Origin: a virus
Lineage: Duplodnaviria; Heunggongvirae; Uroviricota; Caudoviricetes
Reading direction: 5' to 3' (one strand)
DNA: 12,295 bases
Virus record (IMG/VR): IMGVR_UViG_2529292729_000023
Shown here: positions 2,821-12,295 of the stretch, in pieces
Layout: the number at the start of each line of letters is the position of its first letter
Position numbering within the stretch: the first letter of the stretch is position 1
Notes under the pieces: model-generated
The model's database searches: none
Told to the model about the DNA's origin: nothing
The model's input: the letters and a program-made list of their open reading frames with translations, nothing else
Translations under genes and position numbers: made by a program

Positions 2821-2833
2821 GGGGATCTCTCAG

Positions 2834-2842
2834 GGCTCAGCA
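2834..2842. repeat. 9-bp target-site duplication GGCTCAGCA (right copy)
   Basis: Second copy of the 9-mer, directly after the IS10 inside end. Confidence 0.9.
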
Positions 2843-3519
2843 GTAACAACCATTACATGAGGGAGATTTCCCTTACGGTTGCGAATAAGATTTAATGCCT
2901 CAGAACGAGCATTCTGGGCCCGGTCGCTTCTTATTGTCCATTTGCAGGAAATACTTGCGTGTAATATTGGTTTCCCACCATTCGAACTCCTGAGAGCTGA
3001 CATGCGGGTAACAGAATCATCCACCAGTAATTCAGGACTGTTGATAACTTGATCACATTCAGGTTCTCTTTCAACAATAATATCTGGTGAAATCGTATAA
3101 TCACTCCCCAGTGCAGCAGCTAGCTGAGGATTACTTTTTGCAGCACTATCCAATGCTATAAGATGGGCATATTGTTCATATTTAGCTATCTCTAATCTGT
3201 TTCTACCAGAAACCTGATGTACATTCCATTTTCCAGGGCGTAAGTGGCTGAGTTTAAAAAAGGTTTTTTCTATAAACTCTGCGCAGATACTCTCAAACTG
3301 ATTACCAGATGTTTGCCCTGCAACACGTTCACCAATCGTTTCAGCCTGCAAGAAGCGAGCAATTTCTCTTGCTATAGCTTTACTGTTTTTGTTACTGCTA
3401 TCTGCGTTACTAACAACTCCGGCAGTATTAATTGTGAGCGTATTCAGTAACAATTGGGCATGAAACTCCTTTCTGGCTTCAGCAAAACCAACTATGCTGT
3501 CAACCAAATCTCCATTCAT
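2834..3519 (-). pseudogene. Type II restriction endonuclease gene, N-terminal fragment (229 codons), truncated by IS10; PD...SxK...E active-site pattern
   Basis: Track ORF 2830..3654 trimmed to ATG 3519 (AAGGAAA 7 nt upstream, 13 nt after the methyltransferase stop). Frame runs ...HVMVVTAEP then hits a stop one codon inside IS10. Contains SPD (D146), SCK (S191/K193) and E207. Reconstructed intact gene would be 292 codons. Confidence 0.8.
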
Positions 3520-3532
3520 TTCTGGATTTCCT

Positions 3533-4657
3533 TCAGGCTGCTTGACTATTCTTACTGATGTTATTCTTATACCGTCCCTGCAAAACTCCATACACATATT
3601 GTGCGATTTTTGCCGCAAATAGCGGTGGAACAGCATTCCCGATCTGCTTTGCAATCTCAGTTTTTGAACCGGTAAAAATGAAATTATCAGGAAAAGACAT
3701 TAATCTCGCTGCCTCACGATGAGTTATTGGCCGATCCTCTTCCGGATGTAAATATCGCCCTTTCTCCGGTTTGAAAAACTCAGTACGAATCGTTACTGAA
3801 GGTCTGTCCCACCACAGACGTCCAAACAAATCGGTCCCTCCAGATTTCTTTTTTAGCCAGCACGCCGGGGTTATATCAGGTCTTTTTTTCTGTAAATCGA
3901 AACGGTTACCTCCTGGTGGAACCGCTTTATATCGCTCCAGAGAAACAGGTGTGGGATTACGCCCAAAATGTAAGTTCAGCGGAGGAAGTTCATTACGAAT
4001 ATCAGTTCCAACAGGAGCAGGTAAGTCACCAATTGCATCACGCGTACAGACCCATTCAGGCAAAGCGACATCCTTATCAGGGGAACGATGCGTTGGTGCT
4101 GGCGGGAACGCCGGAATACTATGCACATCGAAGAGTTCTCGTTTGATACCGATTGCTATCGTTCGTTTTCTTGTCTGAGGTACTCCATAGTCAGCAGTAT
4201 TCAACACCATTGGATTAAGCAGAATAAAGCCCATGGATTTCGCTCTAAACGTAATGTCCGCAAACTCATCGCTTATCAGCAATCCGGGGACATTTTCCAT
4301 GACGAACATACAAGCCCTTGAACGCTCAATGACATCCATATAAGGCTCCCACAATGCTCTTCGGTGATCACCATAACGATTCTTATTCAATAAACTGAAT
4401 CCCTGACACGGGGGGCCACCTATGACCACATCAGCCTCAGGAACAGTATTGCTGGATGCCCACTCCTCAATATTTGCCTGAACTCCATGCAAACCAAAAT
4501 TGGCATTGTAGGTATTTATAGCTGCAGCATTATTATCAATAGCAAGGATACTTTCAAAGTAGTCAGACATCTCTCCATGAAGAAAACCATAAGATAATCC
4601 ACCTGCCCCACAAAAGAGGTCTATCACTCTGAATTTATTTAATTCTTTCATCCGCAT
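3533..4657 (-). CDS. DNA (cytosine-5)-methyltransferase, intact (374 aa)
   Basis: Conserved C5-MTase motifs all present: FCGAGG (I), GGPPCQGFS (IV, catalytic Cys), ENV (VI), QTRKR (VIII), GNAVPP (X). GAGG sits 7 nt upstream of ATG 4657. Confidence 0.9.
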   Translation of the reverse strand: MRMKELNKFRVIDLFCGAGGLSYGFLHGEMSDYFESILAIDNNAAAINTYNANFGLHGVQANIEEWASSNTVPEADVVIGGPPCQGFSLLNKNRYGDHRRALWEPYMDVIERSRACMFVMENVPGLLISDEFADITFRAKSMGFILLNPMVLNTADYGVPQTRKRTIAIGIKRELFDVHSIPAFPPAPTHRSPDKDVALPEWVCTRDAIGDLPAPVGTDIRNELPPLNLHFGRNPTPVSLERYKAVPPGGNRFDLQKKRPDITPACWLKKKSGGTDLFGRLWWDRPSVTIRTEFFKPEKGRYLHPEEDRPITHREAARLMSFPDNFIFTGSKTEIAKQIGNAVPPLFAAKIAQYVYGVLQGRYKNNISKNSQAA

Positions 4658-4815
4658 CCATATGCCTCAGATTAATGTTGAGCGTCTTGCAGGACGCGTA
4701 ATGTTAACTGGGGCTTTTCTCTATCTGCCTTTTGGTGTTCATGCCTGAGACAGATAGCCTCAAGCACCCGCAGCAATTCTACTTAACTCTCCTTTTCCCG
4801 CAAACCGTTTTTACC

Positions 4816-4837
4816 CGATATGGGAATTCCCATATCG
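4816..4837. repeat. perfect 22-bp palindrome CGATATGGGAATTCCCATATCG
   Basis: Read directly: left half CGATATGGGAA, right half is its exact reverse complement. Lies between the 34-aa peptide gene and the methyltransferase gene; no U-tract on either strand. Confidence 0.7.
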
Positions 4838-4845
4838 TAATGAAT

Positions 4846-4950
4846 TCAGTTCCCTAGTCGATCCATCAAAAACACAACCAGGCAGTAAACGCCCACAACA
4901 GCAACAACAGCCAGCGCACCTTCCATTGCCAGTGATATATCATCCGACAT
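4846..4950 (-). CDS. small hydrophobic single-pass membrane peptide (34 aa)
   Basis: ATG 4950 preceded by AAGGAGGG; product MSDDISLAMEGALAVVAVVGVYCLVVFLMDRLGN. Below the ORF-track size cutoff. Confidence 0.4.
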   Translation of the reverse strand: MSDDISLAMEGALAVVAVVGVYCLVVFLMDRLGN

Positions 4951-4991
4951 ATTCCCTCCTTTGGTGTTAATCCCGGCGAACGTTTTTACCC

Positions 4992-5069
4992 TCACCGACA
5001 AATAACATATACTAAAAAAGCGATAGCCATAGCAACGCCTGTAATTGCAAATGCTTCAGGCCAGTTCAT
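4992..5069 (-). CDS. small hydrophobic membrane peptide (25 aa), likely translationally coupled to the DUF551 gene
   Basis: ATG 5069 overlaps the DUF551 stop as ATGA; AGGAGGT lies 6 nt upstream; product MNWPEAFAITGVAMAIAFLVYVICR. Shares a GV...VY.. core with the 34-aa peptide. Confidence 0.4.
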   Translation of the reverse strand: MNWPEAFAITGVAMAIAFLVYVICR

Positions 5070-5701
5070 TGGCGCACCTCCTGCGGCGGTTCCGGTAGTG
5101 GCATCCAGTGAGTTGCCTGCTCAATGCCATTACCCGGCTTAATCGTTGCTTGTCCTCGCCGAAAGGTACTTCCGGTATTGCGTGCGGAGCATATTAGTGG
5201 CTCAACCAGATCACTATCGAAATTCACCGAAATAAGTACGTTCTGATTCTTTTTCGGCATTCGCTCACTACAGCTTATCCAACCATCCGGAATTACCGGA
5301 GAGTTGCCATTTACATCGAAGTTTGGTTCTGCGTCCTGAACTAGGAGGATGTAACCATTCTTGGCTGTATCAAGTTCTAACGCCTCGGTTACGGTACCGA
5401 AATAGCGATTACCTAAATCCGCATCACAAGTGCTTACATCAATGGAAACCTCCATGCCTTCGATTAATTCTGGCAAGTTGTAAGTTTGGCTTACAGGCTC
5501 TGCTTCCAGTGATGCCAGTGCAATTCGTGCCAGCTCACGCACAACTTCAGGGGGCGCGTAACGGTCATTCAGGTCATCCCACAGGCGTAGCATGTTATCG
5601 CTACCAGGGTGAACATCCTCGTTAGTTCCGGCAAGCGCACTAATAACCTCATCGGCTGCTTCAATAATTTTCTGTGCCTGTTCTCTGGTAATAGTGGTCA
5701 T
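5066..5701 (-). CDS. DUF551-domain prophage protein (211 aa)
   Basis: Track ORF; C-terminal DGWISCSERMP...ATHWMPLPEPP is the pattern I associate with DUF551. AAGGA 7 nt upstream of ATG 5701, which overlaps the upstream stop as ATGA. Confidence 0.75.
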   Translation of the reverse strand: MTTITREQAQKIIEAADEVISALAGTNEDVHPGSDNMLRLWDDLNDRYAPPEVVRELARIALASLEAEPVSQTYNLPELIEGMEVSIDVSTCDADLGNRYFGTVTEALELDTAKNGYILLVQDAEPNFDVNGNSPVIPDGWISCSERMPKKNQNVLISVNFDSDLVEPLICSARNTGSTFRRGQATIKPGNGIEQATHWMPLPEPPQEVRQ

Positions 5702-5907
5702 TTGTTAATCCTTAAAACTTTATGCCCTGGCGCAAAAGCACGTGTTTTGTCTTTGCTTATTCGCCAGCCATCCTTACGTGCCTCTTTTGCACAGCCAGCC
5801 CATGACGTACCGATATATTCACCGAAGTCTGGTACTGGATATACACCTTCCGTACACTGGCGGCAGTCACAATAGAGATGCATGGTGTAACTTGCGGCAA
5901 TAGCCAT
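5698..5907 (-). CDS. small Cys-rich hypothetical protein (69 aa)
   Basis: Track ORF 5698..5979 trimmed to ATG 5907 (AAGGAGAG 6 nt upstream). Product MAIAASYTMHLYCDCRQCTEGVYP... with a CxC-x2-C cluster. Confidence 0.55.
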   Translation of the reverse strand: MAIAASYTMHLYCDCRQCTEGVYPVPDFGEYIGTSWAGCAKEARKDGWRISKDKTRAFAPGHKVLRINK

Positions 5908-5908
5908 A

Positions 5909-6271
5909 TCACTCTCCTTTAGTACGCAAGTGGTTTTTCCAGCGGTTTTGCGCCGCGCTGGGCTTTTTGCAAAAACCACAATCCATCATCCCGTAATGTT
6001 TCATTAACCCCATCCGTCGGTTGCTGAGTCTCACCCACTGCCAGACGCCAGGACCGTTTCTGCGAACTAATAGGATTTTTGCTTTACGGTTTTTCATCGC
6101 TTTGCTCTCCTGCGTTTCTTTGCTGCACGTCTCGCCGCCGCAATACCGGTACGACGTTTCGATACCGGAATGATGCTGCCAGCCATCAGGACATGCGGCA
6201 TAACTGTTAAGGCTGCCCCATGAAACCAGACCAGATAAGGCGATATCAGCATTACTCACTCCAGCAACCAT
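5909..6271 (-). CDS. hypothetical protein (120 aa) with CGGETC and CGFC Cys pairs; start uncertain, may be two smaller genes
   Basis: Frame open over 363 nt, but ATG 6271 has no Shine-Dalgarno. Internal ATG 6097 has AGGAGA upstream and would give a 62-aa product. Another frame gives a 52-aa ORF (6252 to 6094) with GGAG upstream and an ATGA junction at 6097. Confidence 0.4.
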   Translation of the reverse strand: MVAGVSNADIALSGLVSWGSLNSYAACPDGWQHHSGIETSYRYCGGETCSKETQESKAMKNRKAKILLVRRNGPGVWQWVRLSNRRMGLMKHYGMMDCGFCKKPSAAQNRWKNHLRTKGE

Positions 6272-6326
6272 TCTTTGGTTAATTCAGTCATTTTTCATTA
6301 CCGCCCTTTCGGGCGGCCTCCTGACA

Positions 6327-6539
6327 TTAATCGTTGTGATAACTCATAGCTTCATTTGCAGCATCAACTGGATCAACCTCCCTCCAGCAATAATTTGGGT
6401 CGGCTCCTTCAGGCGTCCACGGTTCTAATTCATTTTTTGCCGCATTCTCATCGCCAGTAATTTTAAAAATCTGCTCAGAGAATTTTCTTGCCCACTCGTT
6501 ATATTTTTCCGCATTAATGGCTTTCTGTGTATTTAACAT
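6327..6539 (-). CDS. hypothetical protein (70 aa)
   Basis: Track ORF; GGAGG 7 nt upstream of ATG 6539; acidic product MLNTQKAINAEKYNEWARKF... Confidence 0.6.
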   Translation of the reverse strand: MLNTQKAINAEKYNEWARKFSEQIFKITGDENAAKNELEPWTPEGADPNYCWREVDPVDAANEAMSYHND

Positions 6540-6589
6540 AAATATACCTCCAGTTAAGGATTAGATTTTATTTACAGCGCTAAATTTAT

Positions 6590-6946
6590 TTATTCAGTTC
6601 TGGATTTTGTCACCCTGCGTATCCGCGCTTTCGCGTTACGCTCAATCTGAATTAACTTTTCTATATTTTTCCGCCTTTCCTGTTCCTCCAGGCGCAATAG
6701 TTTTACATCATCTGCCAGCCTGGTTTCTCTTTTCGCAACAGAGAGCATCCAGTCAAATGGCTCCACAACTGCACCGCAGATTTTACAGCGGACCTGACGC
6801 TCTTTTTCGTCAACCCGGACAGAGGCGTGATGACAATATGGCCTTTCCGATGGCTCATAAAGAAAATTAACCTGATTACGTGGGTCATCCTCTTTTACCG
6901 GAAATAAAACAATATTACTTAACTCATCTTCTGGTTTTATTTCCAT
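6590..6946 (-). CDS. hypothetical protein (118 aa), putative zinc-ribbon plus charged coiled-coil tail
   Basis: Track ORF 6590..7003 trimmed to ATG 6946 (AAGGAGAGG upstream). Contains YCHH...RCKICGAV, then a Lys/Arg/Glu-rich C-terminus. Confidence 0.6.
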   Translation of the reverse strand: MEIKPEDELSNIVLFPVKEDDPRNQVNFLYEPSERPYCHHASVRVDEKERQVRCKICGAVVEPFDWMLSVAKRETRLADDVKLLRLEEQERRKNIEKLIQIERNAKARIRRVTKSRTE

Positions 6947-7003
6947 GCACCTCTCCTTTGATGCGAATGCCAGCGGCAATTGAAGCCTGATAGCTAATTT
7001 CAC

Positions 7004-7399
7004 TCACAGCACCACCTCCTGAAAATTCCCCTGACAGAACGCCAGTACACGCTGCATAACTTCGCTATTTCGGCACTCACTGCAAATTATGTTCTGATGC
7101 CTGTCATAGCGGCGTATTTCTCCGTCTGGTAACTTTCGAATCAATGTCTGGTCGGTTGTTTTCTCCGCTGCCTTACGCCATACGCGATACACCTGTTCTG
7201 ATGCAAAAACACCGTATTTACCGGGCATGTATAAATCGCCACAAGCCAGTACATCCACAAGGCAACGTCTGACTGAATGCCAGCCTGCTCCCGTCGCTCT
7301 CTCCAGTTGTGATATCGTCATGCGTTCATTTTTGCGTACCAACCCGATAATTCGGGCCTTCAGTTCTTCACGCTGTTCGTGTGTAAAAGGTTTCGCCAT
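7004..7399 (-). CDS. hypothetical protein (131 aa), possible winged-helix N-terminus
   Basis: Track ORF 7004..7414 begins at TTG; ATG 7399 has GGAGG 5 nt upstream. Product MAKPFTHEQREELKARIIGLVRKNERMTISQLERATG... Confidence 0.6.
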   Translation of the reverse strand: MAKPFTHEQREELKARIIGLVRKNERMTISQLERATGAGWHSVRRCLVDVLACGDLYMPGKYGVFASEQVYRVWRKAAEKTTDQTLIRKLPDGEIRRYDRHQNIICSECRNSEVMQRVLAFCQGNFQEVVL

Positions 7400-7414
7400 A
7401 AGCGCCTCCGGCAA

Positions 7415-8185
7415 TCACTTTTCCGACACAATACGACCGGATGAATCGACAATCTGCCGAACAATATCCCGGTGCTTGTTCAGTTCCCGCAGCGCGGCGC
7501 AGACACGCTCCCACTTCTGAACCTGACCTTTTGCCCGGCGCAGCTCGCGGTTAGCCACATGCAGCGATGGTAAAATCAGCCCATCCGGATGCTTTCTGGT
7601 GAACAACGGCTGTGACTGCACTGTGACCGCCACACTTTCAGTTTTTATTTCTTCCTGTGTCGTCGTTTCCTGGACTGGTAACGCAACACCTGTTGGCTGA
7701 GGAAAGGCTTTACCATCGGTTTCCGCTACGGATGCAGCTTCCGGCTCTGCCGGTAAATCAGCGCCCGGTATGCAGTAACGAAATTTACCGTTCTGATTTA
7801 CGCGTGCCAGGCGCCCCGTTGCTGTTACGACCGCCAACGTGGAAGCAACCTTGCGAATGCTAACACCGAACTTATCCGCCAGTTCCTCACACGTTTTAGC
7901 CCCATCCTGACAGATAAACTCAATCATCATGTCCGCGGTAACTTTTTGTTCGACCTCCCCGGTCAGCACATCCGGTACTTCAGACTGTGCTGGCTGCTCT
8001 TCGGTTACCCCGGATTCACCTTCACCAGCCAGAAACCAGGTGTGACCCGTTTTATCAACAACGCCATTTTTTTTGAGTTCCCACAGTTCGTTGAGAACTT
8101 CTTCACGGCTGATATCAAGCCGCGCCGCCAGTTCAACAGAATTGGCTTTACCCATCGCTTTCAGTGCATGCAATACGGTTTCCAT
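7415..8185 (-). CDS. hypothetical prophage early-region protein (256 aa) with two winged-helix-like segments
   Basis: Track ORF; GGAGG 8 nt upstream of ATG 8185. Two similar segments: [37 protein letters not shown] and [42 protein letters not shown]. Confidence 0.65.
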
Positions 8186-8214
8186 TAAAACTTCCTCCGG
8201 ATAAAAATTACTTC

Positions 8215-8955
8215 TCAGTTCCTGTGCTGGCTGACGTTCGGACGCCAGCTCTCCCAGTTAAACGTCACCCAGCGACCACCGTTCATGGACATGCGGTCCA
8301 TCACCCGCTCGCCGAGAAGTGTATTCATCGCTGCATGGTTAAGATTTGTCAGCATCCCCACACTGAGTAACGATGCCGTTCTGCGGTCAACAATCTGATT
8401 CAGCGTGACCTGCTCATTACGCGTATCCCGTTGCATGCCAATTTCATCCAGTACCAGCAGGTCAACGCCACACAATCCCTGCAAAAATTTTTCGCCCGAG
8501 TTTTTGTTGTCGTAGCTGCCATGTAACGCCAGCATCACATCCGCCACTGTTATCACAATCACACTGCGACCTTTCGCCAGAAGGTGGTTGCCAATAGCCG
8601 CCGCCAGGTGGTTTTTTCCTGTGCCAGGCCGGCCACTGAACACAAAATTCGTACAGCCGCCTTCCAGCTCTGCCGCAATGGATTTCGCCTGACTCAGGGC
8701 ATGGCGCTGACCATCGTTCTGCACCCGGTAGTTACCGAACGTACACTTCCGGTGAAGCGGCTGGATACCGGAGCGGTTAATGATTTTTTCAACCCGCGTC
8801 TGATGATTCAGACGATTAACCTCCTCGCTTCGCTTACGCCCTTCAGCAAGCTGCCATTCCCGCCACTCCGTCACCGTACGGTACGGAGGGATTGCATCCT
8901 GCGGCACAAATCTGCTGACTCTTGCCAGAACACCACCTGACGTAATGTTTTTCAT
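8215..8955 (-). CDS. DnaC/IstB-like AAA+ helicase-loader (246 aa)
   Basis: Walker A-like [15 protein letters not shown] and Walker B LLVLDEIG; positioned directly downstream of the O-like initiator, as in lambdoid replication modules. Confidence 0.8.
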
Positions 8956-8961
8956 GATGCG

Positions 8962-9939
8962 CTACCCCCTGAAACCCGGCGGAATTTCGGTATCCGGTTC
9001 AGAAATATGATTCACGCAACGCTGCGCGGGACCACGCCACAGTCGAATAACCAGTTCATCCCATTTCTCACGGAGTTTTTCCGGGCTCTTGATGTTTTTT
9101 ATCCAGAACGGATCCCGTTGTGCCCGGCTGAACATTTCGCAAATTTGTCTGTGACTTCTTCCATCCAGCATCCGCATTGTGCGCACGTCATTGGCCCACG
9201 CCGTCCAGTTGGGCTCTTTCGGTCGCGTGATCTCACCATCGTCACTGGCAGCCTGTTCGTACAGGTTTACAACCCGCCCCCAGATCCACTGCGCACATGT
9301 CAAATCCTCCCGGGTTCCCCACTGGCGTTTTTTCACGCTGAACACAACAGCATCAGGATGGCGGGTTAAAAACGCCTGTTCAGCCGTCAACTCGTCCGGT
9401 TGCGAAGCGTCCGGACAAGAGAGTTTTTTATTCTCTGTTGTATTCTCTGTTGTATTCTCTGTTGTATTCTCTGTAGGATCATCGGGCCATTTTGACCTGA
9501 TGACATTGGGCCGTTTTGAACCAATGGAACGTTTCATTTTGACCTCTTCCATCGTGTCATTTTGACCTGATGGAGTGGCGCATTTTGACCCGATGGATTC
9601 GTTCACTTTGCCATCATCTAAAAGCGCGCTATCGTAGTTAATTGTGTAAAAATTAGTCATATCACGCTTCGATTTATTGAGCTTTTCGCTACGCAAAAGC
9701 CCCAGCGCTTTCAGACTTGCAAACGCACGCTTTAACGTTGACTCTGACCAGAACGGAAACTGTTCCAGCCATTGTTCCGTTGTGTTGTAAATCCAGCGAA
9801 CGCCATCACATTCCATGCCGGAACTGGTATCCCTCAACCAGTAATGCAGTTGCTGCAACACAATGGCTTCGTTTAAACCAATCTTCATCGCCAGCTGTGT
9901 GTTTATAACCAGCGGGCGTTCAGCAAAAAGAAGGCTCAT
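8962..9939 (-). CDS. phage replication initiator, O-like (about 325 aa)
   Basis: Track ORF 8962..9981 starts at GTG 9981; first ATG is 9939 (MSLLFAERPLVINTQLAMKIGLNEAIVLQQLHYW...). Two families of direct repeats lie inside the coding sequence, as for the lambda origin inside gene O. Confidence 0.75.
   Translation of the reverse strand: MSLLFAERPLVINTQLAMKIGLNEAIVLQQLHYWLRDTSSGMECDGVRWIYNTTEQWLEQFPFWSESTLKRAFASLKALGLLRSEKLNKSKRDMTNFYTINYDSALLDDGKVNESIGSKCATPSGQNDTMEEVKMKRSIGSKRPNVIRSKWPDDPTENTTENTTENTTENKKLSCPDASQPDELTAEQAFLTRHPDAVVFSVKKRQWGTREDLTCAQWIWGRVVNLYEQAASDDGEITRPKEPNWTAWANDVRTMRMLDGRSHRQICEMFSRAQRDPFWIKNIKSPEKLREKWDELVIRLWRGPAQRCVNHISEPDTEIPPGFRG
9431..9474. repeat. tandem 12-bp repeat TTCTCTGTTGTA, about 3.7 copies, in frame (encodes TENT repeats)
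   Basis: Read directly: units at 9431-9442, 9443-9454, 9455-9466, partial 9467-9474. Translates on the minus strand as TENTTENTTENTTEN. Confidence 0.85.
9488..9612. repeat. six iteron-like direct repeats, core CATTTTGACC, 23-24 bp period; candidate replication origin
   Basis: Cores at 9488, 9512 (CGTTTTGAACC), 9535, 9558, 9581, 9604 (CACTTTGCC). Followed by an AT-rich stretch at 9619-9660. Confidence 0.65.
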
Positions 9940-10441
9940 AATTCCATCCGGCTTTTTGTTGGTACTGGTGACGATAGGCACGCTTGAAAGCGATTGCTTT
10001 TTCTATAAGCTCGTCTGTCTCACGTTCCACAACAGCTGGATCTGCAAAAAGCAGCCCGGACTCCACCACATCGCCATATTCTTTGTTTAACCCGGCAATC
10101 ATGTACGTAATGCTTTTTCCGTCAGTAATTTCGCGGTACAACCTGAAATCACTAATCCGGATAGCCTCCATAATTGCCGGAATCAGCGCCGTGAATTTTT
10201 CACGCTTATCCCTGGTGTCGATAGCCTTCCAGCGTTCGAATATCTTCACCCGGTTAACGCCAAGCGCACGCTGATCAACCCCGCCATCATCAAGCGTGAC
10301 ACGCTGAACATCGATGTTCGGGCGTTCCTGTAGAGCCCAGAAGGCTTCAGTAATTAATATCGTCGCCTGCTCCTGCGTCATTCCTGGTCTGCATACCCAG
10401 GCATCCAGAGCCTCGCAAACCTGTTCAGGTGTGATTTTCAT
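9920..10441 (-). CDS. YdaT-like protein in the CII-equivalent position (173 aa)
   Basis: Track ORF; second gene of the leftward early operon. Product MKITPEQVCEALDAWV...KFTALIPAIMEAI... resembles YdaT-type prophage proteins as I recall them. Confidence 0.6.
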   Translation of the reverse strand: MKITPEQVCEALDAWVCRPGMTQEQATILITEAFWALQERPNIDVQRVTLDDGGVDQRALGVNRVKIFERWKAIDTRDKREKFTALIPAIMEAIRISDFRLYREITDGKSITYMIAGLNKEYGDVVESGLLFADPAVVERETDELIEKAIAFKRAYRHQYQQKAGWNYEPSFC

Positions 10442-10703
10442 TGTTCACCGCCAGTAATTCATTCGCTGTACTCTTACGTCCACAAGGCAGGCCATCGGTT
10501 GGGTTAGGGTAAATATCTGGTCGGAGCTCGTGGGGGGTGACAGTCCACGCCATAATCTCACATAGTTGTAAAACCCTTGATGCAGGGACCTGTTGCCCAT
10601 TAACCCATCGACATACAACCTGCTGTGGCAACCCAATCAAGCGAGCAACACCCGCTTGGGATAACCCTATTTGGCGAATTTTATTTTTTAAACATTTATG
10701 CAT
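10425..10703 (-). CDS. Cro-like HTH regulator (YdaS-like), 92 aa
   Basis: Track ORF 10425..10739 starts at GTG; ATG 10703 has GGAG 8 nt upstream. HTH segment LSQAGVARLIGLPQQVVCRW. Divergent from the repressor gene. Confidence 0.65.
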   Translation of the reverse strand: MHKCLKNKIRQIGLSQAGVARLIGLPQQVVCRWVNGQQVPASRVLQLCEIMAWTVTPHELRPDIYPNPTDGLPCGRKSTANELLAVNNENHT

Positions 10704-10730
10704 ATCGCTAACTCCAATCAATCGACACCA

Positions 10731-10804
10731 CTTATACACTTTAAAAGTTACACTATCAACACTTTCAAGCTGATTGTGCTGGCTACACTTTTTTTGTGTA
10801 AAAT
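10731..10804. promoter_or_regulatory. divergent promoter-operator region of the immunity switch
   Basis: Three ACACTTT-containing sites (10736, 10759, 10785) fitting CACTT-N4-AAGTG half-site symmetry. Leftward promoter on the minus strand: -35 TTGATA (10754-10759), 17-bp spacer, -10 TATAAG (10731-10736). Rightward -10 TAAAAT (10799-10804) ends 7 nt before the repressor ATG. Confidence 0.45.
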
Positions 10805-10810
10805 GAATGC

Positions 10811-11218
10811 ATGAAGCGAATGACCACTCTTGAAATAACCACGTACCGGATAAAACTGGTGCTGGAAAAAACAGGGCTTAAGCAAGCAGAACTAGCCCGC
10901 AGAATAGGTGTTGCCCAACAATCGGTCCAAAAGTGGGTTCATGGCATCACAAGCCCATCAATGGCTAATCTTGATAAACTTTCTGAAGTAACAGGATTCC
11001 CTCCATATTGGTTTATGTTGCCACCAAGTGAGGACGAACAGATTGTGGTACCTGACACAATGAAAATAGGTCCGAAGCAAAGAGAGCTACTTCAGACATT
11101 TGGTGCATTCCCAGAGGAAGAACAGGGACAAATGCTTCAGGAGATGAAAGACAAAAAAGAGTTAATGGAGCGCACAATTGAAAGATGGCTCGCTGCCCGG
11201 AAAGGGCATCGAGCATAA
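10811..11218 (+). CDS. XRE-family HTH repressor (CI-like / PaaR-like), 135 aa, no S24 peptidase domain
   Basis: HTH GLKQAELARRIGVAQQSVQKWVHG; divergent from the Cro-like gene; no Ala-Gly / Ser-Lys autocleavage module in the C-terminal half. Confidence 0.8.
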   Translation: MKRMTTLEITTYRIKLVLEKTGLKQAELARRIGVAQQSVQKWVHGITSPSMANLDKLSEVTGFPPYWFMLPPSEDEQIVVPDTMKIGPKQRELLQTFGAFPEEEQGQMLQEMKDKKELMERTIERWLAARKGHRA

Positions 11219-11247
11219 TGACCACCATACACAGACGGAGGTGTGCC

Positions 11248-11436
11248 ATGAATACGGCCCTTTCACCAATGGTTTCTGAGTTCGAAACCATTGAACAAGA
11301 AAACAGTTACAACGAATGGCTGCGTGCGAAAGTAGCAGCGAGCCTTGCAAATCCGCGCCCAGCAATTCCCCATGACGAGGTTGAGCGCAGAATGGCAGAA
11401 CGCTTTGCTAAAATGCGCAAGGAACGGAGTAAGTAG
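11248..11436 (+). CDS. antitoxin partner of ParE (PaaA-like), 62 aa
   Basis: Track ORF 11185..11436 trimmed to ATG 11248 (GGAGG 6 nt upstream). Stop lies 3 nt before the toxin ATG. Product MNTALSPMVSEFETIEQENSYNEWLRAKVAASLANPRPAIPHDEVERRMAERFAKMRKERSK. Confidence 0.65.
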   Translation: MNTALSPMVSEFETIEQENSYNEWLRAKVAASLANPRPAIPHDEVERRMAERFAKMRKERSK

Positions 11437-11439
11437 TAA

Positions 11440-11727
11440 ATGTTACCCGTGTTATGGCTTGAAAGCGCAGATACCGACCTAGATGATATAACTAGTTATA
11501 TTGCTCGTTTCGACATAGATGCGGCAGAACGCTTATGGCAGCGATTAAGGGGGTGTGTGCTGCCGTTATCCGAACACCCGTATTTATACCCACCAAGCGA
11601 CAGAGTACCTGGCTTGCGTGAGATTGTAGCTCACCCTAACTATATAATTCTTTACCGTGTAGCCACTTTAAGCATTGAGATCGTGAGTGTAGTACACGCC
11701 AGACGCCAATTCCCCAAGCAGAACTAA
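11440..11727 (+). CDS. parE: ParE/RelE-family type II toxin (95 aa)
   Basis: Product MLPVLWLESADTDLDDITSYIARFDIDAAERLWQRLRG...PGLREIVAHPNYIILYRVATLSIEIVSVVHARRQF follows the ParE-family pattern. Confidence 0.8.
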   Translation: MLPVLWLESADTDLDDITSYIARFDIDAAERLWQRLRGCVLPLSEHPYLYPPSDRVPGLREIVAHPNYIILYRVATLSIEIVSVVHARRQFPKQN

Positions 11728-11739
11728 CCCTTTCACAGG

Positions 11740-11767
11740 GCCGTCTCATCTCGAGGCGGTTTTTGTT
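11740..11767 (+). terminator. rho-independent terminator after the repressor-antitoxin-toxin operon
   Basis: Stem CCGTCTC (11741-11747) pairs with GAGGCGG (11753-11759) including one G-U pair; 5-nt loop; then TTTTTGTT. Confidence 0.6.
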
Positions 11768-11778
11768 GCTCACAACCT

Positions 11779-11814
11779 AACTTTATAAGTGTTGACATAA
11801 TAACTTTAAAAGTG
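11779..11814. promoter_or_regulatory. second operator-like cluster with a -35-like TTGACA
   Basis: AACTTTATAAGTG (11779-11791) and AACTTTAAAAGTG (11802-11814), 23 bp apart, flank TTGACA (11792-11797). Same CACTT-N4-AAGTG-type motif as at 10736. No convincing -10 hexamer seen. Confidence 0.35.
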
Positions 11815-11998
11815 CATCCTTGTTTCACCAACCCACCCCATTCAACAGAACGCAGGGCAATACTTCGAGTTACCCGGCAGTGGTCAGGGGTTAAGTAGCC
11901 AGCCCGAGGCGTATGAACATGACGGCGGGAACACTTTGTATAACAGCGCAGCAGGTTTTTAGTTCCGCGACCCGGCGTTAAGGGTAAATGAGGTCAAC

Positions 11999-12151
11999 AT
12001 GGATACTATCGATCTTGGCAACAACGAATCTCTGGTATGTGGCGTGTTTCCCAATCAGGACGGCACATTCACCGCCATGACGTATACCAAAAGCAAATCG
12101 TTTAAAACCGAAGCTGGCGCGCATCGCTGGTTAGCAAGAAACTCCGACTAA
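11999..12151 (+). CDS. small hypothetical protein (50 aa)
   Basis: ATG 11999 with GAGG 5 nt upstream; product MDTIDLGNNESLVCGVFPNQDGTFTAMTYTKSKSFKTEAGAHRWLARNSD. Below the ORF-track size cutoff. Confidence 0.5.
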   Translation: MDTIDLGNNESLVCGVFPNQDGTFTAMTYTKSKSFKTEAGAHRWLARNSD

Positions 12152-12162
12152 TGAGGTTGACG

Positions 12163-12295
12163 ATGGAATTTAAAGATTTACCTCCTTCAATCCAGGAGAT
12201 TGCAGCACACACACTTCGTCATCGTCTGAACGAACTTGAATTGGAATCGGTAACGAAAAAAGACACTGATAATATGGCTCGTAATGTGCGCGATA
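12163..12295 (+). CDS. hypothetical protein, 5' part only (runs off the right edge)
   Basis: ATG 12163 with GAGG 6 nt upstream; MEFKDLPPSIQEIAAHTLRHRLNELELESVTKKDTDNMARNVRD... continues beyond the window. Confidence 0.45.
   Translation, partial: MEFKDLPPSIQEIAAHTLRHRLNELELESVTKKDTDNMARNVRD

Follow-up and report, generated by a model that had tools for sequence, protein, structure and literature searches.

The window analysed here is a 12,295-nucleotide stretch of DNA, held as IMG/VR virus record IMGVR_UViG_2529292729_000023 (Caudoviricetes), which belongs to a lambdoid prophage of Shiga toxin-producing Escherichia coli (STEC) and has the gene layout of a lambdoid immunity region. Our subject is a set of five near-palindromic 15-bp sites that lie on both sides of the repressor operon of this region. 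The repressor, the analogue of CI, is a protein of 135 aa encoded on the plus strand (10811..11218), with an N-terminal HTH_3 helix-turn-helix (HTH) domain (Pfam, E = 1.3e-13) and a C-terminal domain of the PaaR2/DicA kind. It resembles the short repressor DicA (34% identity over 109 aa, E = 2e-17), its C-terminus matches the C-terminal domain of PaaR2 (53% over 55 aa, E = 4e-16), and Pfam gives only HTH families for it and no S24 peptidase domain of the LexA/CI type. Divergent from it, on the minus strand, lie a 92-aa Cro analogue of the YdaS family (10425..10703; PF15943, E = 1e-10) and a YdaT-family protein (9920..10441; PF06254, E = 1e-5), whose counterpart is the CII analogue of prophage CP-933P (PMC8630535). 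Downstream of the repressor, on the plus strand, follow a toxin-antitoxin (TA) pair consisting of a PaaA2-type antitoxin (11248..11436) and a ParE2-type toxin (11440..11727), the latter 93% identical to ParE2 of CP-933P, and then an intrinsic terminator of the whole operon (11741..11767; CCGTCTC-ATCTC-GAGGCGG followed by TTTTTGTT).

Three of the five sites begin at 10736, 10759 and 10785, in the 107-bp gap (10704-10810) between the divergent genes, and form a tripartite right operator region (OR) between the repressor operon and ydaS; the other two begin at 11778 and 11801, at a TTGACA promoter, and form a bipartite left operator region (OL) at the ydfA/dicB promoter, just past the terminator of the repressor-PaaA2-ParE2 operon. 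They share a 13-bp core, CACTT-N3-AAGTG, that is CACTTT-N-AAAGTG, and comparison of related sequences suggests a full site of 15 bp, (A/G)CACTTT-N-AAAGT(G/T)N. O_R1 is ACACTTTAAAAGTTA (10736..10750), its 13-bp core (10737-10749) being invariant in alignment A2. O_R2 is ACACTTTCAAGCTGA (10759..10773), centred 23 bp from O_R1; it is weak, as the left half alone fits the consensus, and that half, together with ATCAAC, is invariant in alignment A2. O_R3 is ACACTTTTTTTGTGT (10785..10799), O_L2 is TAACTTTATAAGTGT (11778..11792) and O_L1 is TAACTTTAAAAGTGC (11801..11815). The strongest three, O_R1, O_L1 and O_L2, are asymmetric, with one half reading ACAC- or GCAC-TTT and the other TAAC-TTT, and the consensus half always points toward the adjacent promoter hexamer, as it does in the related loci L003, L016, L017 and L019. 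We considered the dyad GTTGCTCACAAC (11764-11775) as a third OL site and set it aside, because its motif differs, it is off-register and neither L016 nor L017 conserves it.

An earlier reading of this sequence, referred to below as the original prediction, had described CACTT-N4-AAGTG as recurring on both sides of the immunity operon; the recurrence stands, while the spacing has to be corrected from four bases to three. The sequences that it quoted, ACACTTTAAAAGT beginning at 10736 and AACTTTAAAAGTG beginning at 11802, lie at those coordinates and do share the 10-mer CTTTAAAAGT, which occurs exactly twice in the window (10739 and 11804) and, with one mismatch allowed, eight times against 1.04 expected, a count reached by 0 of 200 shuffles. 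The related sites that it listed at 10759, 10785 and 11779 are likewise present (CACTTTCAAGCTG at 10760, CACTTTTTTTGTG at 10786 and AACTTTATAAGTG at 11779). It had also placed the left cluster over leftward promoter hexamers, which we recognise as the TTGATA and TATAAG of PR, and the right cluster on either side of a TTGACA, which is found at 11792-11797 between O_L2 and O_L1.

The putative leftward early promoter PR (10731..10759, minus strand) consists of a -35 TTGATA (10759..10754), a 17-bp spacer and a -10 TATAAG (10736..10731); it is predicted to drive ydaS, ydaT and the replication genes, and its geometry is kept in all relatives. The promoter at the far end of the repressor operon, PL (11792..11820, plus strand), has a -35 TTGACA, a 17-bp spacer and a -10 CATCCT (11815-11820), is predicted to drive ydfA and a dicB-type operon, and is the counterpart of dicBp and the positional homologue of the TTGACC-17-TAATCT of prophage Qin. 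Read on the minus strand as CAGCTTGAAAGTG-TTGATA-GTGTAACTTTTAAAGTG-TATAAG, PR aligns without gaps to PL, read on the plus strand as AACTTTATAAGTG-TTGACA-TAATAACTTTAAAAGTG-CATCCT, with 32 of 51 positions matching. Both carry one operator in the spacer, against the -10 (O_R1 and O_L1), and a second one against the -35 (O_R2, which abuts it, and O_L2, which overlaps it by one base), with the two centres 23 bp apart. Relative to estimated transcription starts, all of which are inferred, the site centres fall at -19 (O_R1), -42 (O_R2) and -68 (O_R3) for PR (start ~10724) and at -19 (O_L1) and -42 (O_L2) for PL (start ~11827). For the repressor promoter, similar to the promoter for repressor maintenance (PRM) of lambda, they fall at -19 (O_R3), -45 (O_R2) and -68 (O_R1), with a start at 10811. 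The three dyad-symmetric sites of the 107-bp gap overlap both PR and PRM, as in a lambdoid OR, and the same motif recurs beyond the repressor operon at a second promoter. A consensus scan had proposed another leftward promoter, TTTACA-18-CACAAT (10802..10773), whose -10 is not conserved in relatives; TTGATA-17-TATAAG is preferred because it is collinear with PL and conserved.

The PRM-like promoter (10796..10813, plus strand) has an extended -10, TGTTAAAAT (10796-10804), whose own bases and spacer are overlapped by O_R3, followed by 6 nt and the ATG at 10811; O_R2 lies ~45 bp upstream of this ATG. Thirteen relatives were read for this feature, and they keep a -10 followed by 6-7 nt and an in-frame ATG; in CP-933P the layout is likewise GATAAT-TACCAC-ATG. 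The RefSeq annotation places the start of the repressor at 10820 (132 aa), but the conserved extended -10, 6 nt and ATG, as in CP-933P, favour the start at 10811 (135 aa, MKRMTTLE...). By analogy with paaR2 of CP-933P, which is leaderless by 5' RACE (PMC8630535), the repressor mRNA is predicted to be leaderless.

A scan of one genome per species gave no close relatives of the repressor, and a phage collection gave proteins of at most 36% identity over most of their length, annotated as DicA, CI or Gifsy repressor; a large protein collection gave relatives of 53-93% identity in E. coli, Salmonella, Enterobacter, Klebsiella, Raoultella, Pluralibacter and Morganella. There is no solved structure of a close homologue, the best match being the HTH of the 434 repressor (E = 7.5e-4). 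Seventeen loci were fetched, and 13 loci were read for the comparison of helices and operators (L004, L006, L008 and L017 being left aside). The original prediction had proposed a comparison with the operators of related prophages. All ten informative relatives (53-90% identity) have three sites at OR and a further pair at a TTGAC promoter on the far side of the repressor operon; L009, L010 and L018 fall outside this set, as the PL site pair was not found there or the region was not looked at. The relatives of the window type, L016 and L017 (~90% identical), L003 (87%), L005 (77%) and L019 (53%), have three copies of the same motif at OR and two at the downstream TTGAC promoter, with or without an intervening TA pair. 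When five window-type loci are aligned, the columns without change gather on the operators and on the hexamers of the promoters (ATCAAC from the PR -35, TTGAC and TGTAAAATGAATG.ATG), whereas leaders, inter-operator spacers and the terminator region diverge or are wholly replaced. More distant relatives keep the architecture, with a motif altered in step with the recognition helix of the repressor.

This covariation can be followed residue by residue. The repressor and the Cro-like protein share a QQxxxxW helix, and across the 13 loci its seventh residue tracks base 4 of the operator: lysine or arginine goes with C, and glutamine, glycine or histidine with G or A. In the window and in L003, L005, L016 and L019 the repressor helix AQQ[ST]VQKW and the Cro helix PQQV[VI][CS]RW accompany operators of the form ACACT...AGTG. 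In L009, L018 and L020 SQQTVQRW and [SRK]QQ[TN][IV]SRW accompany ACAC-N7-GTGT, and in L007 and L010-L013 [AT]QQTVQQW and QQTV[WSF][QGH]W accompany ACAGT-N5-ACTGT (or ACAAT). In alignment, the residue that varies corresponds to Gln33 of the 434 repressor, which in the 434 crystal structures contacts operator base pair 4. That repressor and Cro both co-vary with the site argues that both read it.

The closest described system is CP-933P (Sp12) of E. coli O157:H7, in which the genes stand in the same order as in the window: ydaT, ydaS, OR, repressor, paaA2, parE2 and PL. There, OR is footprinted by PaaR2 and by YdaS, which repress PR and PL; at low levels PaaR2 activates PRM, it assembles into octamers, and the locus shows bistability (Jurenas et al. 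2021, PMC8630535). The likeness at the DNA level is patchy: the TA genes (window 11260-11660) are 93-100% identical to those of CP-933P (L015) and so is the PL leader (11842-11921, 92-100%), whereas the 3' end of parE, the terminator and OL/PL between them (11660-11840) are unrelated, as are OR, cro (its protein 25% identical) and the part of the repressor gene that encodes the N-terminal DNA-binding domain. Operators are present at both PR/PRM and PL in either prophage, but they differ, CACTTT-N-AAAGTG in the window against the published GTTTAGTAA-type repeats, which are absent from OR and OL of the window. The OR-intergenic region measures 107 bp against 97 bp, and the window has three recognisable sites at OR and two at OL, where CP-933P has four inverted repeats (three OR operators) and three sites at OL. 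Given the different DNA-binding domain and operators, the window would be heteroimmune to CP-933P, and the pattern of identity implies that the two operator blocks and the DNA-binding domain were replaced jointly, around a TA module that was kept. It has been proposed that an addictive TA module must be retained when immunity regions recombine (Jurenas et al., PMC8630535), and the near-identical PaaA2-ParE2 pair between unrelated flanks fits that idea.

Several other explanations for the recurring sites have to be weighed. The motif could be an AT-rich word that matches by chance in two AT-rich intergenic regions, and the counts of a loose 13-mer in the window do not speak against this, being no higher than shuffled sequence would give (9 against 6.8 expected and 5 against 2.6, with 2-3 mismatches allowed). 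For this reason, a stricter comparison was made with the left-region 15-mer ACACTTTAAAAGTTA (10736-10750) alone, which borrows nothing from the right cluster, at up to three mismatches, in the window (12.3 kb), in the reference-strain copy that overlaps its right part (L001, 24 kb) and in the rest of the prophage with host flank (L014, 42 kb), the last two covering ~66 kb of an almost identical prophage and its flank. Its only other matches are those at 11778 and 11801, each with two mismatches, on the opposite strand and 23 bp apart, so that this 15-mer does not occur at similar density throughout the prophage, an outcome that would have counted against the original prediction. At up to two mismatches 0.03 matches are expected per window, 0 of 1000 first-order Markov windows held two or more, and two matches in 271 bp of intergenic composition have P ~5e-4. 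With identical spacing and promoter register at both clusters and conservation in relatives as well, chance is effectively refuted and its probability close to nil. It is hardly more attractive to suppose that PR and PL are merely duplicated promoters that look alike by common descent, with no operator function, although their alignment does extend over 51 bp and includes the hexamers. The shared elements are dyad-symmetric in the manner of protein-binding sites, a third copy lies at PRM, which is a different promoter, and relatives keep the dyads while spacer bases change; nor would duplication predict a dyad that changes along with HTH residues. We regard this explanation as very unlikely.

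The location of the TA genes between the two clusters raises another thought, that the sites are autoregulatory operators of the PaaA2-ParE2 complex, as in type II TA systems. Yet CP-933P combines a near-identical TA pair with entirely different sequence at both operator positions and is regulated by PaaR2, not by the antitoxin (PMC8630535), and relatives without TA genes (L005, L007 and L012) keep the OR/OL arrangement. The different operators of CP-933P and these TA-less relatives effectively exclude TA autoregulation, to which we give next to no weight. The alternative with the most to be said for it, though still an improbable one, is that YdaS alone, or some other factor such as YdaT, reads the sites, with the repressor acting elsewhere or on its own operon only. 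The YdaS helix PQQVVCRW also co-varies with the motif, and which protein binds cannot be told from sequence alone. However, the recognition helix of the repressor co-varies with operator position 4 in the same way, and in CP-933P the footprints of PaaR2 and YdaS fall on one and the same region and each of the two proteins represses PR and PL (PMC8630535). As for YdaT, the motif TTGATT-N6-AATCAA of CP-933P is missing here.

The reading that we prefer is that the five sites are very probably the operators of a lambda-style immunity switch, read by the 135-aa repressor. This is the OR/OL arrangement that the original prediction had seen, and gene layout, promoter register, relatives, helix covariation and the block swap against CP-933P all lend it support; by analogy, the OR/OL logic is supported also by experiments on the homologues PaaR2/YdaS and DicA/DicC. 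A number of observations weigh against it. O_R2 and O_R3, with 2-3 mismatches to the 13-mer, would be inconspicuous were it not for their position and conservation, and only two OL sites can be recognised, where three are reported for CP-933P and Qin. The TAACTTT half (as against ACACTTT) is not easily squared with simple 434-like recognition, in which ACA would be read in each half. The proposed -10s are non-canonical, as TATAAG lacks the usual final T and the other is CATCCT, and the consensus promoter scan found neither PR nor PL.

If the sites are operators, the switch can be outlined as follows. Dimers of the repressor would bind the near-palindromic 15-bp sites, and occupancy of O_R1 and O_L1 would exclude RNA polymerase and turn PR and PL off, with O_R2 and O_L2, against the -35 hexamers, assisting the shut-off. 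O_R2, ~45 bp upstream of the predicted leaderless start, is placed so that it may stimulate PRM at low repressor, and O_R3, over the extended -10 of PRM, so that it may shut this promoter at high repressor. The Cro-like YdaS would read the same sites and counteract the repressor, so that the switch would be bistable. Looping between OR and OL may be mediated by the PaaR2-like C-terminal domain, a proposal based on its homology to the octameric PaaR2 (PMC8630535). With no peptidase domain in the repressor, induction is not expected to proceed via RecA-stimulated self-cleavage.

The window from ~4630 to 12295 is identical to a lambdoid prophage of E. coli 2012C-4227 (NZ_CP013029.1), which sits at ydfJ, the chromosomal site held by Qin in K-12. 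Leftward beyond ydaT lie an O-like and a DnaC-like replication gene. Rightward, 232 non-coding bases separate the terminator from ydfA (DUF1391; 11999..12151, plus strand), with which the PL operon begins; in the reference genome the operon that starts with ydfA continues to dicB, an exonuclease, xis and int. In the region right after the -10 of PL (window 11826-11960), a C-rich, G-poor stretch, ACCAACCCACCCC..., is seen in every relative (L003, L005, L007, L011-L013 and L015-L017). In the window and CP-933P the leader comes next, with 92-100% identity between the two up to ~11920 and less thereafter. This could be an element of the Rho-loading or antitermination type; a comparison of 10300-12295 with Rfam found no match, and the PL leader has no significant fold (z = +1.55). 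With 173 aa, the YdaT homologue of the window is longer than that of CP-933P (141 aa). TTGATT-N6-AATCAA, the operator published for YdaT, shows no enrichment and does not occur near OR or within ydaS, so any PRE-type promoter (for repressor establishment) would have a different site here. The left end of the window encodes a DDE transposase (1612-2820) and, on the minus strand, an NgoMIV-type restriction enzyme (2830-3654) together with a C5 cytosine methylase (3533-4657). Since the window up to ~4630 has no match in the prophage of NZ_CP013029.1, this part is strain-specific cargo in the late-early region, composed of a restriction-modification system and an insertion sequence element. In the reference strain (L001 19016-23996 and L014 29071-30354), NleG-like DUF1076 genes and tail-fibre, Lom and gpJ genes in the opposite orientation lie beside the integrase, which suggests a tandem second prophage or a remnant of one.

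While the arrangement is ordinary and well understood, the immunity type is rare and undescribed. Of 5426 complete E. coli genomes, 12 carry the OR block, most of them from STEC and bovine isolates, and 15-20 carry the OL block; a full-text literature search for the operator words yielded nothing beyond unrelated vector and primer sequences. Judged by its genes and sites, this is an immunity region of the PaaR2/DicA type with a predicted specificity unlike that of both characterised members, CP-933P and Qin. Its description gives the set of operators, and with it the immunity specificity, for a rare prophage immunity type; the experimentally characterised PaaR2/DicA class gains a member with clean-dyad operators, and the comparative data from 13 loci tie residues of the recognition helix to operator bases. 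This can be of use in predicting superinfection immunity and cross-regulation among STEC lambdoid prophages, and leaves the understanding of how such switches work unchanged. Wider interest is confined to the helix-operator covariation and the TA-anchored swap of immunity. Here we put forward, tentatively and at somewhat less than an even chance, two readings: a one-residue recognition code shared by repressor and Cro, and the addictive TA pair as a fixed anchor amid swapped operator blocks. The recognition code, if true, would allow immunity typing of STEC and other enterobacterial prophages from sequence, and deliberate re-targeting of repressors.

Another known system close to the window is Qin of K-12. 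It occupies the same chromosomal site, ydfJ, its repressor DicA also has 135 aa with dicC divergent from it, and at its ydfA-dicB promoter one operator lies upstream of the -35 and another within the spacer, as at PL of the window. The operator bound by DicA is Oc, and DicA activates its own gene while repressing dicC and dicBp (PMC3441716, PMC10448788). Unlike the window, Qin has no TA module between dicA and dicBp, and its operator, the 20-bp dyad TTGTTAGTCATAACTAACAA, differs from the sites described here; the form TTGTTAGT...ACTAACAA is present at both Qin promoters and at neither OR nor OL of the window. The likeness to lambda lies in the divergent PR and PRM with their three-part operator, in the second operator at PL past the repressor operon and in the accessory genes that follow the repressor, rexAB in lambda and the TA pair here. 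The OR-OL distance, ~1.05 kb in the window, is shorter than that of lambda (~2.4 kb), and the repressor lacks the S24 peptidase domain of lambda CI. In site length the window (15 bp) stands between lambda (17 bp) and 434 (14 bp). With 434 it shares the Gln-Gln start of the recognition helix, in repressor and Cro alike: the repressor helix AQQSVQKW aligns to TQQSIEQL of the 434 repressor. At the level of the sites, O_R3 reads ACAC-N7-GTGT, while O_R1, O_L1 and O_L2 each have one TAAC half in place of the ACA...TGT of the 434 type.

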